From an uncultured Bacteroidota bacterium (lineage in GTDB: Bacteria; Bacteroidota; Ignavibacteria; Ignavibacteriales; Ignavibacteriaceae), in contig CAWALU010000011.1 of NCBI GenBank assembly GCA_963782985.1, forward strand, positions 97,747 to 161,746: a DNA stretch of 64,000 nt. The letters run 5' to 3'. This document shows positions 13,279 through 49,065 of this stretch, piece by piece. The stretch's first letter is position 1. The number at the start of each line of letters is the position of its first letter. Below the pieces are notes generated by a model. The model worked only from the letters and a program-made list of their open reading frames with translations, was not told where the DNA came from and made no database searches. A program made the position numbers and the translations under genes.

Positions 13279-13351
13279 GGGCAGATAGCTCAGTCGGTAG
13301 AGCAAAGGACTGAAAATCCTTGTGTCGGGGGTTCAATTCCCTCTCTGCCCA
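13279..13351 (+). tRNA. tRNA-Phe (anticodon GAA)
   Basis: 73-nt cloverleaf folded by hand. Acceptor GGGCAGA/TCTGCCC, D arm GCTC/GAGC, anticodon loop CTGAAAA, T loop TTCAATT, discriminator A. Confidence 0.93.
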
Positions 13352-13359
13352 CTTCAATT

Positions 13360-13386
13360 ACCCGCATTACCGAGTGCGGGTTTTTT
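13360..13386 (+). terminator. Intrinsic terminator after tRNA-Phe
   Basis: Hairpin ACCCGCA-ttaccgag-TGCGGGT followed by a T6 run. Confidence 0.7.
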
Positions 13387-13435
13387 ATTTTAAAAACCTT
13401 GTAGGGGTTCTCCCTCAATAGCGAGATGCACTTCG

Positions 13436-13487
13436 CTCAAATTCTTTCTCTGCCCACTTCAATTACCCCGAACCAATCGGGCTTTTT
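13436..13487 (+). repeat. Second copy of the tRNA-Phe 3' end plus flank (att-like direct repeat) with its own terminator-like hairpin
   Basis: A 22-bp identical core 'tctctgcccacttcaattaccc' occurs at 13342-13363 and 13447-13468, with imperfect similarity extending 5' of the core. The second copy is followed by CCCGA-accaa-TCGGG plus T5. Confidence 0.75.
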
Positions 13488-44512: not shown

Positions 44513-45223
44513 TTACTTAATCGGCACTTCAATTAAAAGTAATTCGGAATTTGAGTTAGATTTAATTTTAATTTTATCAGTGTCCCAAATTCCAAATCCG
44601 TCACGCGAATTTAAAATTTGATCTTCAATTAAAATACTCCCGCGAATAGAAAATGCATAAACCCCGTTTCCTTTGTCTTTAATTTTATACTCTGTTTCAA
44701 ATCCCTGTTCAAATTCGCCAAGATGAAACCAGGCAGTTTGATAAATCCACAAATTTTCAGTTGAAGGATTTGGAGATACTACTTCAAGCAGTTTATTTTT
44801 ATAATCTGATGGATTAAATTTTTTTTGCTGATAACGCGGCGTAACATTTGTCTTATTAGGAATTACCCAAATTTGGAAAAGTTTAACTTCGGAGTCTTTA
44901 TTTTTATTGAATTCAGAATGCAGAATTCCAGTACCGGCTGACATTACTTGAATTTCATTTTTTTGAATAACACCTGCGTTGCCCATGTTATCTTTATGTT
45001 CTAACTCGCCCTCAATAGGGATGGTTATAATCTCCATATTATCATGCTGATGCATTCCAAATCCTTCTCCGCCTTCAACCGTATCATCATTTAATACTCT
45101 AAGTGAGCCAAAATGAACTCTTTCAGGATTATAATATCCGGCAAAACTAAAAGTGTGATAAGTATTTAACCAGCCGTGGTCAGCATGTCCCCGTGAATTA
45201 GCTTGATGAAAAACAGATTTCAT
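44513..45223 (-). CDS. Pirin family bicupin protein
   Basis: 236 aa. 'RGHADHGWLNTYHTFSFAGYYNPERVHFGSLRVLNDD' and 'GFGMHQHDNMEIITIPIEGELEHKD' match pirin/YhaK-type cupins. Confidence 0.88.
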   Translation of the reverse strand: MKSVFHQANSRGHADHGWLNTYHTFSFAGYYNPERVHFGSLRVLNDDTVEGGEGFGMHQHDNMEIITIPIEGELEHKDNMGNAGVIQKNEIQVMSAGTGILHSEFNKNKDSEVKLFQIWVIPNKTNVTPRYQQKKFNPSDYKNKLLEVVSPNPSTENLWIYQTAWFHLGEFEQGFETEYKIKDKGNGVYAFSIRGSILIEDQILNSRDGFGIWDTDKIKIKSNSNSELLLIEVPIK

Positions 45224-45394
45224 AACATTATCCTTTATTTATATAACCTTATCTTTTTAATCCTTTAATTTAATTTAAAGGAATCACTTAAATTTTATTT
45301 TTAATTGAATTGAATGCCTAAAGATTAATAAAAAAATAATTAAAAATGAAGTAAGGAGTGATTAGTTAGAATCTATTCAAAACAATAAATCTTA

Positions 45395-45624
45395 TCCGGG
45401 TGGGAGATTCGAACTGGGGACCTTCCCGATAGAATCGGGACGCGCTAACCGTGAAATAAAAAAATAAAAGTCGGGGTGGGGAGATTCGAACTCCCGACCT
45501 TCCCGATAGAATCGGGACGCGCTAACCGTGAAATAAAAAAATAAAAGTCGGGGTGGGGAGATTCGAACTCCCGACCTTCCCGATAGAATCGGGACGCGCT
45601 AACCGTGAAATAAAAAAATAAAAG
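45395..45624 (-). repeat. Three tandem 77-bp units (outermost 76 bp, degenerate), each a 5'-truncated tRNA-Pro-like 3' portion plus a 21-nt A/T spacer
   Basis: Units start at 45395, 45471 and 45548, and the next period (45625) is the intact tRNA-Pro. Units 2 and 3 are identical by eye. On the minus strand each unit reads ACTTTTATTTTTTTATTTCAC + GGTTAGCGCGTCCCGATTCTATCGGGAAGGTCGGGAGTTCGAATCTCCCCACCCCGA. Confidence 0.85.
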
Positions 45625-45699
45625 TCGGGGTGGGGAGATTCGAACTCCCGACCTCTTCGTCCCGAACGAAGCGCGCTAACCGGGCTGCGCTACACCCCG
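45625..45699 (-). tRNA. tRNA-Pro (anticodon CGG)
   Basis: 75-nt cloverleaf on the minus strand: CGGGGTG-TA-GCGC-AGCCCGGTTA-GCGC-G-CTTCG-TTCGGGA-CGAAG-AGGTC-GGGAG-TTCGAAT-CTCCC-CACCCCG-A. Confidence 0.9.
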
Positions 45700-45715
45700 A
45701 AGTGAAGTTTTATAT

Positions 45716-45976
45716 TTAATTTATAAAATATTGTTGATATTTAAATTTGATGTATTCCTTATTTTTTAGTTCCTTTAATTCCAATTCAAACTTATTTGCA
45801 TCAAGTTTTGTATCAAATGGCCGCTTAAAAATTATTTTCCAAGGACCTTTATTTTTTGTTGATTTATTTTGCCCCGAATTATGTTCAATTAATCTTCGGT
45901 CTAAATCATTTGAATGTCCGTAATACCATCTCTTGCTTTTTTCAGATTCAATTATATATGTGAAATATATTTCCAC
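45716..45976 (-). CDS. GIY-YIG nuclease family protein (YhbQ/Slx1-like URI domain, 86 aa)
   Basis: 'YFTYIIESEKSKRWYYGHSNDLDRRLIEHNSG' contains the GIY...YIG...R...E/N core. The GTG start lies 2 nt after the tRNA fragment, whose GGGAAGG sits at Shine-Dalgarno distance. Confidence 0.85.
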   Translation of the reverse strand: MEIYFTYIIESEKSKRWYYGHSNDLDRRLIEHNSGQNKSTKNKGPWKIIFKRPFDTKLDANKFELELKELKNKEYIKFKYQQYFIN

Positions 45977-45978
45977 GA

Positions 45979-46028
45979 GACCTTCCCGATTGAATCGGGA
46001 CGCGCTAACCGGGCTGCGCTACACCCCG
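45979..46028 (-). pseudogene. 5' 50 nt of a tRNA-Pro-like gene (acceptor, D arm, palindromic 'anticodon' arm, variable loop), truncated exactly before the T stem
   Basis: The minus strand reads CGGGGTG-TA-GCGC-AGCCCGGTTA-GCGC-G-TCCCG-ATTCAAT-CGGGA-AGGTC. The first 28 nt are identical to the intact tRNA-Pro(CGG). The nominal anticodon is TCA. Confidence 0.75.
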
Positions 46029-46159
46029 AATTTCTATAAAGAGCGACAGCAAAATAAACTCTTTGAAATCATTTTACAAGTAATTTCAATTCCTTAAATT
46101 AATAATCGAATATTTCTTTACTTTCATTTCCATTAGCTATAAGTTTGATGAACAATATT

Positions 46160-46263
46160 ATTAACCTTTAAATCTATCCGCGAGATGGATAAGGATGGAA
46201 GAAAATTAAAATCTCACTAAAATAAAAAGGAACCTCCACGGCGGAAGCTAAGGAGGATTTTTT
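46160..46263 (+). promoter_or_regulatory. Candidate PyrR-binding leader / attenuator upstream of pyrR
   Basis: 'CUUUAAAUCUAUCCGCGAGAUGGAUAAGG' (46165-46195) resembles the PyrR binding-loop consensus as I remember it. Downstream, CCUCC (46233-46237) can pair with the SD GGAGG (46252-46256), followed by U6. Confidence 0.4.
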
Positions 46264-46765: not shown

Positions 46766-46837
46766 AATTGATGGAGAAGACTGCATCAATTTAGTTGAAA
46801 CCATAAATGAATAACAAATTAAACATGAGTTTAAAAT

Positions 46838-47761
46838 ATGCCATTATCAAGCAGACATTTACTTGGGTTAAAAATGTTCCTAAGGAAGACATCCAATTAA
46901 TTTTGGATACTGCAATAACATTTAGAGAAGTATTAGATAGGCCAATCAAAAAAGTACCTACACTTCAAGGGAAAACAGTTGTAAATCTTTTTTATGAAAA
47001 TTCCACACGCACAAGAATTTCATTCGAACTTGCGGAAAAAAGATTATCTGCCGACAGCATAAATTTTTCTGTATCTGCAAGCAGCGTAAGCAAAGGTGAA
47101 ACTTTTAAAGACACAATCCGCAATATTGAAGCGATGAAAGTTGATATGGTTGTGGTTCGTCATGCCGCTGCGGGAACGCCATATTATCTTACCCAAATTA
47201 GCGATGCAAATATTATAAATGCGGGCGATGGAATTCATGAACATCCCACTCAAGGTTTGTTGGATATGTATTCAATTAGAGAAAAGCTGGGAAGGCTTGA
47301 AGGATTAAAAGTTTGTATTGTTGGAGATATTGCTCATTCAAGAGTTGCATTATCAAATATTTTTGGATTGAAAACTATGGGTGCAAAAGTTTCTGTCTGC
47401 GGACCTTCGACAATGATTCCTCGTTACATTGAAGCAATTGGGCGTTGATGTAATTTATAATATTGATGAAGCAATTCAAGAAAATGATGTTTTAAATATT
47501 CTTCGCATTCAATTGAAAGAAAAGCCCGAGAATATTTCCCATCAATTAGAGAGTACGCAAAATATTTTGGAATTGATAGAGCAAGGTTAGAAAAGAACTG
47601 GAAAAGATATTGTTCTACTATGCATCCGGGACCCAATAAACAGAGGAGTTGAAATTGCATCAGATGTTGCAGATGGATCAAATCAAATAATTTTGCAGCA
47701 GGTTACAAACGGCGTTGCTGTTCGAATGGCAGTCCTTTATTTATTAGGAACTCTTAATTAA
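46838..47761 (+). pseudogene. pyrB: Aspartate carbamoyltransferase catalytic subunit, interrupted by at least 4 frameshifts
   Basis: Homology is spread over three frames. The segments are 'MPLSSRHLLGLK', then 'NVPKEDIQLILDTA...NLFYENSTRTRISFE...HPTQGLLD...IVGDIAHSRVA...IEAIG', then 'VDVIYNIDEAIQENDVLNILRIQL', then '[24 protein letters not shown]...MHPGP', then '[37 protein letters not shown]'. Shifts lie near 46870-46874 (A5), 47441-47443 (GGG), 47520-47523 (A run) and ~47631-47636. Confidence 0.85.
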
Positions 47762-47772
47762 AAGGAATTGAA

Positions 47773-49065
47773 ATGAAAATTATCTTAAGAAATGTAAACC
47801 TTCTTCATCCAGAACAAAAATTAAATAAAAAAAATATTGATGTTTTAATTACTGACGGCGTAATTACAAAAATTGGAAAATTAAGCGAGGATGAAGTTAA
47901 AGGTTCCAAAGAATTTGATCTTAAAAAATAAATACGTGGTGCCAGGATTTTTTGATATGCATGTGCATCTTCGTGAGCCTGGAAGAGAAGATGAGGAAAC
48001 AGTGGTTACCGGCTGCAATGCTGCTGCAAACGGCGGATTCACAGCAGTTGCCTGCATGCCTAACACCGAACCGGCAATTGATTCTGCCGAAGTGATTCAC
48101 TTAATTCAGAAAGAAGCCGCAAATCATTTGGTAGATGTTTATCCAATTGGTGCCGCAACAGTTGGAAGAAAAGGGGAAATAATAACTCCAATGGCTGAAC
48201 TTTATGAAGCCGGTGCAGTTGCTTTTTCAGATGACGGCGTAGCGATAAAAACTGCGGCAATTCTTAAAAGAGCTTTGGAATATTCTAAGATGTATAATCT
48301 TCCAATAATTGAACATTGTGAAGATGAAACTTTAGCTGGCGGCGCAATGAATGAAGGGATAAATTCAACCTTACTTGGATTGGCTCCGCTTCCCTCTGTC
48401 GCGGAAGATTTGATAGTCATGCGCGATATTCTTATGGCCGAATACACAGGTGGAAAAGTTCACATTGCACACATCAGCACAAAGCGATCTGTAGAGATTG
48501 TTAGAGAAGCGAAGAAAAGAGGAGTTAACGTAACCGCTGAAGCAACTCCGCATCATTTTTCGTTAACCGATGATTCATTAAAAACATACGATACAAACAT
48601 GAAAATGAATCCGCCTCTACGCACTACTGAAGATGTTAAAGAAGTTATGAAGGTTTAAAAGATGGAACATTGGATTGCATAGCCAGCGATCATGCTCCTC
48701 ATTCTCCTGAAGAAAAAGAAGCTGAATTTGAATACGCTCCAAACGGAATTTTAGGATTAGAGACTATGGTTGGTTTAACTTTATCAGAACTCTACCATAA
48801 AAAAGTATTAACACTTGAACAAATAATTGAAAAGTTTTCTATCAATCCAAGAAAAGTTTTAAATATTCCAATTCCAAAATTTGAAGAAGGCGAAGAAGCC
48901 AATTTCACAATTTTAGATCCTGATGAAGTATGGACGGTTGATGTGTCGAAGTTTAAAAGTAAATCGAGAAATTCCCCATTCAATAAAAAACTTCTTACCG
49001 GAAAACCAGTTGGTGTGATTAATAAAAAGAAGATGTTTTTTGAGGGAGAGTTTAGTAAAATATAA
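47773..49065 (+). pseudogene. pyrC: Dihydroorotase, interrupted by 2 frameshifts
   Basis: Three segments: 'MKIILRNVNLLHPEQ...DVLITDGVITKIG...' (from ATG 47773), then 'YVVPGFFDMHVHLREPGREDEET...', then 'EGLKDGTLDCIASDHAPH...'. Shifts lie at the A6 run 47923-47928 and near 48645-48652. Confidence 0.85.

Follow-up and report, generated by a model that had tools for sequence, protein, structure and literature searches.

Hairpin-tagged partial copies of tRNA-Pro(CGG) in tandem beside a small GIY-YIG nuclease gene in an Ignavibacteriaceae genome

We analysed, by sequence only, a 64,000-nucleotide (nt) stretch of DNA from an uncultured bacterium of the family Ignavibacteriaceae (the window; C11:97747-161746, contig CAWALU010000011.1 of assembly GCA_963782985.1). 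The genome comprises 4.07 Mb in 19 contigs and has a G+C content of 34%. The locus described here surrounds an intact tRNA-Pro(CGG) gene. Read along the minus strand, it contains a hairpin-tagged 5' fragment of the tRNA (45977-46030), an open reading frame (ORF) for a single-domain GIY-YIG nuclease of 86 amino acids (45716-45976), the intact tRNA-Pro(CGG) gene (45625-45699) and, directly downstream of this gene, three units that are arranged head-to-tail on the same strand. Unit 3 adjoins the tRNA gene (45548-45624) and is followed by unit 2 (45471-45547) and by the outermost, degenerate unit 1 (45395-45470). The array is real, and its units are three dead partial copies of the neighbouring tRNA-Pro(CGG) gene.

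The sequence-only reading of this DNA had described a 77-bp array with a period of 76/77/77 bp, and this description is borne out by three kinds of search. Tandem Repeats Finder reported a repeat at 45398-45654 with a period of 77, 3.4 copies, 97% matches and a score of 486, and a repeat search returned three 99-nt copies with a spacing of 77/77. In BLAST searches of the whole genome, 45471-45547 and 45548-45624 were 100% identical over 77 nt, as had been stated for units 2 and 3, and the outer unit showed 95.7% identity to these two over 69 nt. The 77-bp unit was not found by BLAST anywhere else in the 4.07-Mb genome.

Each unit consists, in this order, of a 17-nt AT spacer, CGGTTAGCGCG (the 3' part of the D arm), the hairpin TCCCGA-TTCTA-TCGGGA, AGGTC (variable loop), the T arm and the 3' strand of the acceptor, and the gap between neighbouring units is 17 nt. 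The final 31 nt of units 2 and 3, which contain the T arm and the acceptor strand, match the 3' end of tRNA-Pro(CGG) exactly. In every unit, the 17-nt anticodon arm of the tRNA is replaced by the 17-nt hairpin, which repeat and palindrome searches located on the minus strand at 45424-45440, 45501-45517 and 45578-45594 (units 1, 2 and 3, respectively). This hairpin had been taken for a variant anticodon arm shared with the split gene, i.e. with the 5' fragment. The stem is indeed the same in both, but the loop is ATTCTAT in the units and ATTCAAT at 45977-46030, one base off. Nor is it a variant anticodon arm; it is instead a hairpin specific to the cassette family described below, with a loop of 4-8 nt in other genomes.

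The degeneration of the outermost unit, which had also been pointed out before, affects the T stem and the acceptor. In the plus-strand reading, the T stem changes from gaactcccgacc to gaactggggacc, and tcggggtgggg is changed to tccgggtggg, which represents one acceptor change plus one G fewer; the missing G gives this unit its period of 76. Unit 1 therefore retains the spacer, CGGTTAGCGCG, the hairpin and AGGTC, followed by a broken T arm (CCCAG/CTCCC) and a damaged 3' acceptor strand. Elsewhere in the window, the pyrB-like and pyrC-like genes at 46807-48658 are split into overlapping ORFs (46807-47448, 47429-47590, 47773-47931 and 47891-48658). Judging from this fragmentation, the assembly appears to be rich in homopolymer errors and is probably based on long reads. 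Since the G missing from the outer unit belongs to a G run, its loss may be a sequencing error.

None of the units qualifies as a tRNA. The 5' acceptor strand is missing from them, as is half of the D arm, in agreement with their earlier description as displaced 3' copies of tRNA-Pro that cannot form a cloverleaf, and ARAGORN called only the intact tRNA-Pro(CGG) (45624-45699) and none of the units. The intact gene scored 66.2 bits against the Rfam tRNA model over its full length (positions 1-71). Units 2 and 3 are not scored as complete tRNAs by this covariance model: they reached 23.0 bits, below the gathering score of 29, in local matches to model positions 8-63 with the D loop deleted. For unit 1, no tRNA match was listed at E <= 10. 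Over 45200-46250, the Rfam search at E <= 10 yielded only tRNA and sub-threshold noise matches, by which any other known RNA family was rejected, and a promoter and terminator scan found nothing above shuffled expectation. Fold prediction gave the hairpin a 7-bp stem and a 3-nt loop, both as RNA and as DNA of either strand; in unit 1 as single-stranded DNA (ssDNA), the hairpin alone is still predicted to fold (z = -0.84).

Two unusual kinds of tRNA were also considered and rejected. A suppressor or odd-anticodon tRNA is contradicted by the position of the nominal anticodons (UCU/UCA) inside the hairpin, the loop of which ranges between 4 and 8 nt across 97 homologous contexts at other loci, and by the missing 5' acceptor strand. 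A split tRNA assembled in trans, with the 5' fragment supplying one part and a 3' unit the other, is contradicted by the overlap of the two pieces and by their hairpins, which are the same rather than complementary, as well as by the presence in the genome of the intact tRNA-Pro(CGG) together with tRNA-Pro(GGG) and tRNA-Pro(UGG). It is most likely that the units have no cellular function.

On the other side of the tRNA gene, the 5' fragment contains the 5' strand of the acceptor, the D arm, a hairpin of its own (TCCCGA-TTCAA-TCGGGA, 45984-46000) and AGGTC. Thirty nucleotides of the fragment are those of the 5' end of the tRNA, and its fold as ssDNA has a z score of -3.5. The fragment follows what was the upstream region of the original tRNA gene; this region is conserved with relatives that have no ORF.

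The nuclease ORF starts with GTG, 2 nt past the AGGTC of the fragment. It is located upstream of the array, which begins 92 bp from it, and is surrounded by one hairpin upstream and three downstream. The product matches Pfam PF01541 over residues 4-73 of 86 (E = 1.1e-15). Its best relatives of solved structure are the UPF0213 proteins 1zg2 (BH0048, E = 1.8e-10) and 1ywl (EF2693, E = 1.6e-5), and the Y..YG, R and E motif positions align with those of 1zg2; a weak NCBIfam match was to a group I intron endonuclease family (E = 0.0096). The ratio of non-synonymous to synonymous substitution rates (dN/dS) is 0.06-0.23 against seven relatives, and the ORF is under purifying selection. Its nucleotide identity to the same-genus copies is 85-90%, compared with 84-85% for pyrR and 74-76% for the pirin gene, values that are not decisive on a recent horizontal arrival. 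A phage origin of the ORF was also tried: a tblastn search of 50,697 phage records gave no match. The neighbouring ORFs encode a pirin, a PyrR-like phosphoribosyltransferase and envelope proteins, and no integrase domain was present in the ORFs scanned between 42461 and 46765.

The history of the site was traced in relatives. The order pyrR, tRNA-Pro(CGG), pirin is syntenic in five same-genus genomes, in which the number of 3' units is one, one, one and two in the relatives compared with three here. G002 and G005 have neither the 5' fragment nor the ORF and retain one unit each, that of G005 being decayed, with a mutated 3' arm of the hairpin. G006 has one fragment with ORF and one unit. G003 contains two tandem copies of the fragment with ORF and two units, which have a period of 113 and show several differences, the hairpin and the acceptor being mutated in the outer one. 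The genome analysed here has one fragment with ORF and three units with a period of 77. Decay thus affects outer or ORF-less units: the unit of G005, the outer unit of G003 and, by its T stem, unit 1 here. At 13 of the 19 tRNA-Pro(CGG) loci that were fetched from other relatives, no ORF, fragment or hairpin was present.

All same-genus units align with each other and start at about the same point of the D arm. Their spacers are AT-rich and weakly alignable between genomes. The expansion in G003 (period 113) and that found here (period 77) repeat different, lineage-specific spacers, which indicates that the two expansions are independent local duplications and not repeated imports.

Three T-arm alleles of tRNA-Pro(CGG) exist in the genus (GGGAG, GAGAG and CCCGG). 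In the units of G002 (L035), G003 (L033) and G005 (L049), a hairpin-containing insert of 17-22 nt splits the T loop between GTTC and GAAT. The same split is found at L008, L012, L017 and L127, which represent other genera and other tRNAs, and the inserts vary in sequence from lineage to lineage. No T-loop insert is present in the units here or in those of G006, and their T arm matches that of their own tRNA; in G005, the T arm of the unit (GAGAG) does not match that of its own tRNA (CCCGG). We read this pattern as the outcome of gene conversion and replacement of alleles that recurred between the tRNA and the dead unit. Such 3' remnants persist after the nuclease gene is gone, exchange sequence with the live tRNA by gene conversion and vary in copy number within the genus.

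Relatives of the ORF were identified at 31 loci in a collection of species-representative genomes. A tRNA is located directly beside the ORF at 29 of these loci, and a GC-rich palindrome is present near the ORF at 30. The tRNA hosts are Pro-CGG in Ignavibacteriota, Arg-TCG in Bacteroidota, Asn-GTT in a Saccharibacteria metagenome-assembled genome (MAG) and Ile-GAT in Patescibacteria. Among the loci read through, the palindrome lies inside a partial copy of the adjoining tRNA, where it replaces or interrupts an arm. The layout is either type A, as here (fragment with hairpin, ORF, tRNA), or type B (tRNA, ORF, 3' unit with hairpin), and the palindromes are of the types CCCGA..TCGGG, GGCGC..GCGCC, CCTGCC..GGCAGG and CCCGCC..GGCGGG. 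When hairpin type was mapped on the nuclease tree, 3 changes were required, which is the possible minimum; the mean of shuffled assignments was 13.9, and none of the 200 shuffles was as low. The Ignavibacteriota contain two nuclease clades with two hairpins at the same tRNA-Pro(CGG), and the clade with the CCTGCC hairpin spans Bacteroidota and Saccharimonadota. Hairpin type therefore follows the nuclease, and neither the tRNA nor the host.

A scan of the species-representative genomes for the context GCG-TCCCGA-N2-8-TCGGGA-AGG returned at least 120 stretches from many phyla. The first 80 of these loci contain 107 matches to the hairpin context, 97 of which are located outside any intact tRNA; 66 of these 97 lie within 600 nt of one, and the loops are 4-8 nt long. 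A relative of the nuclease is encoded in 34 of the 120 listed stretches (up to 8 kb each) and was undetected in the other 86 (∼72%), so that ORF-less remnants predominate. Cultured strains with this hairpin context include Pontibacter locisalis KCTC 42498 (L054), which has a tRNA-Ala, an ORF and a hairpin, Algoriphagus sp. AGSA1 (L062), which has two 3' units in tandem, and Flavilitoribacter nigricans DSM 23189 (L091). Tandem arrays of two to three hairpin-tagged 5' or 3' fragments, with periods of 68-147 bp, were found at 8 other inspected loci from several phyla. In a Melioribacteraceae MAG (L009:2602-3530), tRNA-Pro(CGG) is followed by three tandem repeats of a GIY-YIG ORF plus a hairpin-tagged 3' unit, ∼210-320 bp each, and of the three ORFs, one has a frameshift, another an internal deletion, and the third is intact. 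The hairpin loop at this locus (TAGAA) is the exact reverse complement of the TTCTA found here, as if the palindromic module had been placed in the opposite orientation.

At L084, L060, L091 and other loci, ARAGORN names some full-length hairpin-substituted copies 'tRNA-???' (with 2- or 4-base anticodons) or assigns them wrongly (for example, Ser-GGA or Leu-CAG), and such remnants of the cassette probably give rise to odd pseudo-tRNA calls when genomes are annotated automatically. Full-text literature searches, whose coverage leaves out most subscription journals, returned no account of a cassette of GIY-YIG nuclease and hairpin at bacterial tRNA genes.

From the copy-number variation and the distribution among relatives, the array is best interpreted as one displaced 3' copy of ancestral origin that was amplified in tandem specifically in this lineage. 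We consider it probable, although well short of certain, that the units are dead hairpin-substituted 3' copies of tRNA-Pro(CGG) belonging to the GIY-YIG cassette family, and that one ancestral unit was amplified by recombination or slippage. The ancestor of the genus probably carried one such unit in the interval from tRNA-Pro(CGG) to the pirin gene. In the present lineage, gene conversion from the tRNA would have homogenised the T arm of this unit and thereby generated two exact 31-bp direct repeats 77 bp apart, repeats of a kind on which unequal crossover and slippage commonly act. The three units would then have arisen between these repeats by unequal homologous recombination or by slippage during replication, and breaks introduced by the neighbouring nuclease may have stimulated the amplification, as for the phage enzyme SegB discussed below. 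In the present array, 31-bp repeats bound each 77-bp unit, so that a tandem segment bounded by homologous tRNA-derived sequence lies beside a nuclease gene. Unequal recombination had been among the routes offered in the sequence-only reading, and it gives the best account of the stacking: one or two homologous units occupy the same site in the genus, and each expansion repeats its own spacer. What is observed comprises the anatomy of the locus and its homologies, the distribution and variable copy number of the units, the decay of outer and ORF-less units, the match of hairpin type to nuclease clade and the purifying selection acting on the ORF; the route of recombination, recognition of the hairpin by the nuclease and any stimulation by its breaks are inferred.

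Several points weigh against this explanation. The T stem of the outer unit is chimeric (5' CCCAG, 3' CTCCC), for which one crossover provides no simple explanation, and it resembles the same-genus CCCGG allele on one side only. Because the homology of the AT-rich spacers is weak, descent from one ancestral unit is probable, not proven. The exact number of three copies is that of the assembled sequence, and recognition of the hairpin by the nuclease is what we infer from the precedent of the Ssn enzymes (see below). Under a classical homing model, moreover, the intact tRNA copy would stay a target. Finally, the recurrence of arrays (8 of ∼80 loci) may be compatible with an active, iterative process.

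Under an iterative process of this kind, each unit would stem from a separate event in which a hairpin-bounded, non-autonomous mini-element of 77 bp is pasted into the intact tRNA gene at its anticodon arm. The element would consist of the anticodon arm, variable loop, T arm, acceptor, spacer, D part and hairpin and would be mobilised by the GIY-YIG nuclease, older units being pushed outward. We regard this as rather unlikely, even though in both layouts the ORF segment is bounded by one anticodon arm and one hairpin, the newest-looking units adjoin the tRNA, the outermost T-stem allele is different and partly relative-like, and arrays recur in many phyla; the 86 of the 120 listed hairpin stretches in which a nuclease relative was undetected are also as expected of non-autonomous copies. 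However, units 2 and 3 are identical, including the lineage-specific 17-nt spacer, G003 independently expanded a different 113-bp version, and the flanking 31-bp direct repeats are enough for slippage or unequal crossover. To our knowledge, no such insertion mechanism exists for GIY-YIG enzymes. It is distinctly improbable that the copy number is an assembly artefact, that is, that exact tandem repeats were mis-resolved and the true number is lower or higher. At least two distinct junctions are anchored, one by the diverged outer unit and one by the tRNA; relatives that were assembled independently have one to two units and, at tRNA-Pro(CGG), three repeats of ORF plus unit; and a contig count of 19 for 4.07 Mb, taken with the homopolymer-type frameshifts, suggests the use of long reads, which would easily span 231 bp. 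Such an artefact would nevertheless be consistent with the exact repetition of units 2 and 3 and with the errors in the assembly (fragmented pyrB/pyrC), and independent assemblies of the same strain were not found by exact-pattern scans of metagenome contigs or by exact look-ups of the nuclease and pirin proteins.

The remaining alternatives concern a role as RNA and the action of integrases. The units might be co-transcribed with tRNA-Pro and processed to tRNA-like or tRNA-half-like RNAs, or might serve as decoys for tRNA-binding factors; their orientation is that of the tRNA, the terminator scan found no terminator-like site between the tRNA and the array, and the hairpin and T arm are predicted to fold. 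Lacking a 5' acceptor strand, however, the units cannot form the usual substrates of RNase P/Z, anywhere from 0 to 3 copies are present across relatives, units decay in G005, in G003 and here, and the hairpin loops are free to vary (4-8 nt). The reverse-complemented loop of L009 (TAGAA versus TTCTA) also fits an element acting at the DNA level better than one acting at the RNA level, and we consider a functional RNA very improbable. The 3' ends of tRNA genes are classical integration sites, of which displaced 3' copies are a hallmark, and the array resembles the displaced tRNA 3' ends of attL/attR sites in that a partial 3' copy lies downstream of an intact, reconstituted tRNA gene. Integrase islands that repeatedly integrated at and excised from the 3' end of tRNA-Pro could thus have left stacked att remnants. 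Unlike attL/attR, the locus has no integrase and no island: no integrase domain occurs in the neighbouring ORFs scanned, the neighbours being pirin, the PyrR-like phosphoribosyltransferase and envelope proteins, and 17-nt spacers separate the tandem units. In addition, the copies reach the D arm, their anticodon arm has been swapped for a palindrome that tracks the GIY-YIG clade, and mirror-image 5' fragments of the same design exist upstream. Integrase att stacking was accordingly rejected as extremely improbable, and repeated integration, which had been among the routes offered for the array, is not supported in this sense; the agent is instead the small cassette of GIY-YIG nuclease and hairpin found at tRNA genes of several phyla.

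The amplified cassette remnants favoured here can be compared with several known systems. SegB is a free-standing GIY-YIG homing endonuclease of the tRNA gene clusters of T-even phages (PMC2330249; PMC13096335). It cuts within tRNA genes, with a preference for the motif RAWTSGAAC, the reverse complement of the T-loop sequence GTTCSAWTY, and SegB and recombination genes were shown experimentally to be needed for tandem segmental amplification (PMC13096335). Here, too, a GIY-YIG nuclease gene lies among tRNA genes, and the split of the T loop between GTTC and GAAT in relatives provides a suggestive link to the SegB motif. However, the present protein has 86 amino acids, comprises the catalytic domain only and is chromosomally encoded, whereas SegB has a C-terminal part, which is truncated in 'SegB-short' (PMC13096335). 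SegB also has no signature hairpin or partial tRNA copies, both of which are present in the cassette, and it amplifies functional genes, whereas dead fragments are amplified here. Seg-type homing endonucleases in general share with the cassette the GIY-YIG domain and presence/absence polymorphism at one conserved site, but the protein described here has no additional DNA-binding domain, its Pfam domain already covering residues 4-73 of 86. Classical homing is also a poor fit to the persistence of an intact tRNA copy beside the cassette.

The Ssn family (SsnA) consists of single-domain GIY-YIG enzymes that cut ssDNA site-specifically beside cognate NTS/SRM hairpin repeats, which flank the gene; recognition rests on the sequence of the stem, the identity of the loop is dispensable, and homologues differ in their cognate hairpin (PMC11893778). 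The cassette shares several of these features: the gene is flanked by hairpins, the stem is conserved, the loop is free and the hairpin type tracks the protein clade. The stem of NTS also holds TCCCG...CGGGA. Ssn is defined as CDD cd10448; the solved structures nearest to the present protein are those of the UPF0213/Slx1 cluster. NTS repeats differ from the hairpins described here in that they lie scattered around genes, hundreds of copies in all, and do not take the place of arms in partial tRNA copies. The Ssn paper contains no mention of tRNA (PMC11893778).

A short conserved DNA hairpin that acts as the cis signature of a small nuclease gene, and ORF-less copies that outnumber the ORF-bearing ones, are features shared with IS200/IS605 and REP/RAYT systems. 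These encode a Y1 HUH transposase, whereas the cassette encodes a GIY-YIG protein; furthermore, the cassette has no defined element ends, and its site is a tRNA arm rather than a tetranucleotide. With the UPF0213/Slx1-like proteins 1zg2 and 1ywl, the nuclease shares the single-domain size of ∼90 amino acids. In an analysis of the GIY-YIG superfamily, such proteins were grouped with the structure-specific Slx-1, of which 1ywl was the representative (PMC1564403). A link of UPF0213 to tRNA genes or hairpins is not reported in the searchable papers.

Genes for tRNAs are usually regarded as passive landing pads for integrases. The cassette is a much smaller parasite of tRNA genes, consisting of a nuclease gene of ∼85 codons and a hairpin of 15-20 bp. 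It rebuilds the tRNA beside itself and leaves hairpin-tagged dead copies that are able to amplify. The array itself is a by-product, informative on the persistence, gene conversion and amplification of 3' remnants. These findings bear on the evolution of tRNA loci, on 'tRNA-like' annotation debris, including the 'tRNA-???' calls of ARAGORN, and on what the proteins of the large, uncharacterised UPF0213/Slx1-like family do.

It is also possible, although we are inclined to doubt it, that the hairpin-tagged partial tRNA copies are not inert scars but serve a new class of minimal mobile element as its recognition modules, acting in cis. An Slx1-like GIY-YIG nuclease with a catalytic domain only would then gain its specificity from the cognate DNA hairpin and would act on hairpins extruded by the single-stranded DNA of tRNA genes. 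The anticodon arm, the T loop or the D loop would be swapped for the cassette hairpin, a built-in partial duplication would keep the tRNA alive, and arrays would represent a legible record of successive cycles of nuclease-induced breakage and repair at one tRNA gene. Should the nuclease turn out to be specific for hairpins, it could be placed beside the Ssn enzymes as a possible tool for cutting ssDNA at defined sites.

Remnants of the same general design occur at other tRNA genes of this genome, which contains 33 CCCGA..TCGGG hairpins compared with ∼2.8 expected from base composition. Partial self-copies, most of them with a hairpin or a T-loop insert, also flank tRNA-Asp, Val, Thr(GGT), Leu(CAG), Ser(GGA), Ser(TGA) and Phe, and at least 8 of the 46 tRNA genes have such remnants. 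The sites outside the window are C12:250707-250850, C14:352043-352200, C6:257951-258030, C16:25100-25185, C2:293820-294330 and C6:634896-635000. Hairpin-tagged 5' fragments with no ORF are located upstream of tRNA-Asp(GTC) and tRNA-Val(GAC). In the 3' remnant of tRNA-Thr(GGT), the T arm is replaced by TCCCGATATAATCGGGA, and the 5' fragment of tRNA-Leu(CAG) contains a CCTGCC..GGCAGG palindrome in the D loop. tRNA-Ser(GGA) is followed by a GIY-YIG pseudogene with an in-frame stop and then by a 15-nt repeat of its own 3' end, and a 14-nt copy of positions 2-15 of tRNA-Ser(TGA) lies 100 nt upstream of that gene.

The case of tRNA-Phe(GAA) lies within the window (13279-13467, plus strand). The gene occupies 13279-13352, and a partial 3' self-copy, with no ORF, lies ∼60 nt downstream. 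The T loop of the copy is split (GGGGTTC, a 29-nt insert, AATTC), the last 11 nt of the tRNA and 10 nt of trailer are repeated exactly (13342-13362 = 13447-13467), and a CCCGA..TCGGG hairpin is located directly at 13467, behind the copy. This remnant is of the same kind as the tRNA-Pro units.

Hairpins also occur in dispersed form. Fifteen dispersed CCTGCC..GGCAGG palindromes of ∼20 nt were identified in this genome, resembling the signature palindrome of the nuclease clade of Bacteroidota and Saccharibacteria; only a pseudogene resembles the nuclease of that clade, as judged by eye from its C-terminal motif and not by placement on the tree. On contig C14 (3060-8993), the hairpin TGGCGCTTCATCAGCGCCA occurs five times within 6 kb, once with an additional A. 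In G006 (L001:2880-3000), the 5' fragment contains an extra nested mini-insertion, CCCCGATTTACATCGGGATAAACTCCGCC, in the D loop, and an unrelated site of the genome analysed here (C2:6167-6206) has CCCGATATTCATCGGGATAAACTCCGCG, a hairpin-plus-tail much like CCCCGATTTACATCGGGATAAACTCCGCC, which suggests that the hairpin module is also able to insert by itself.

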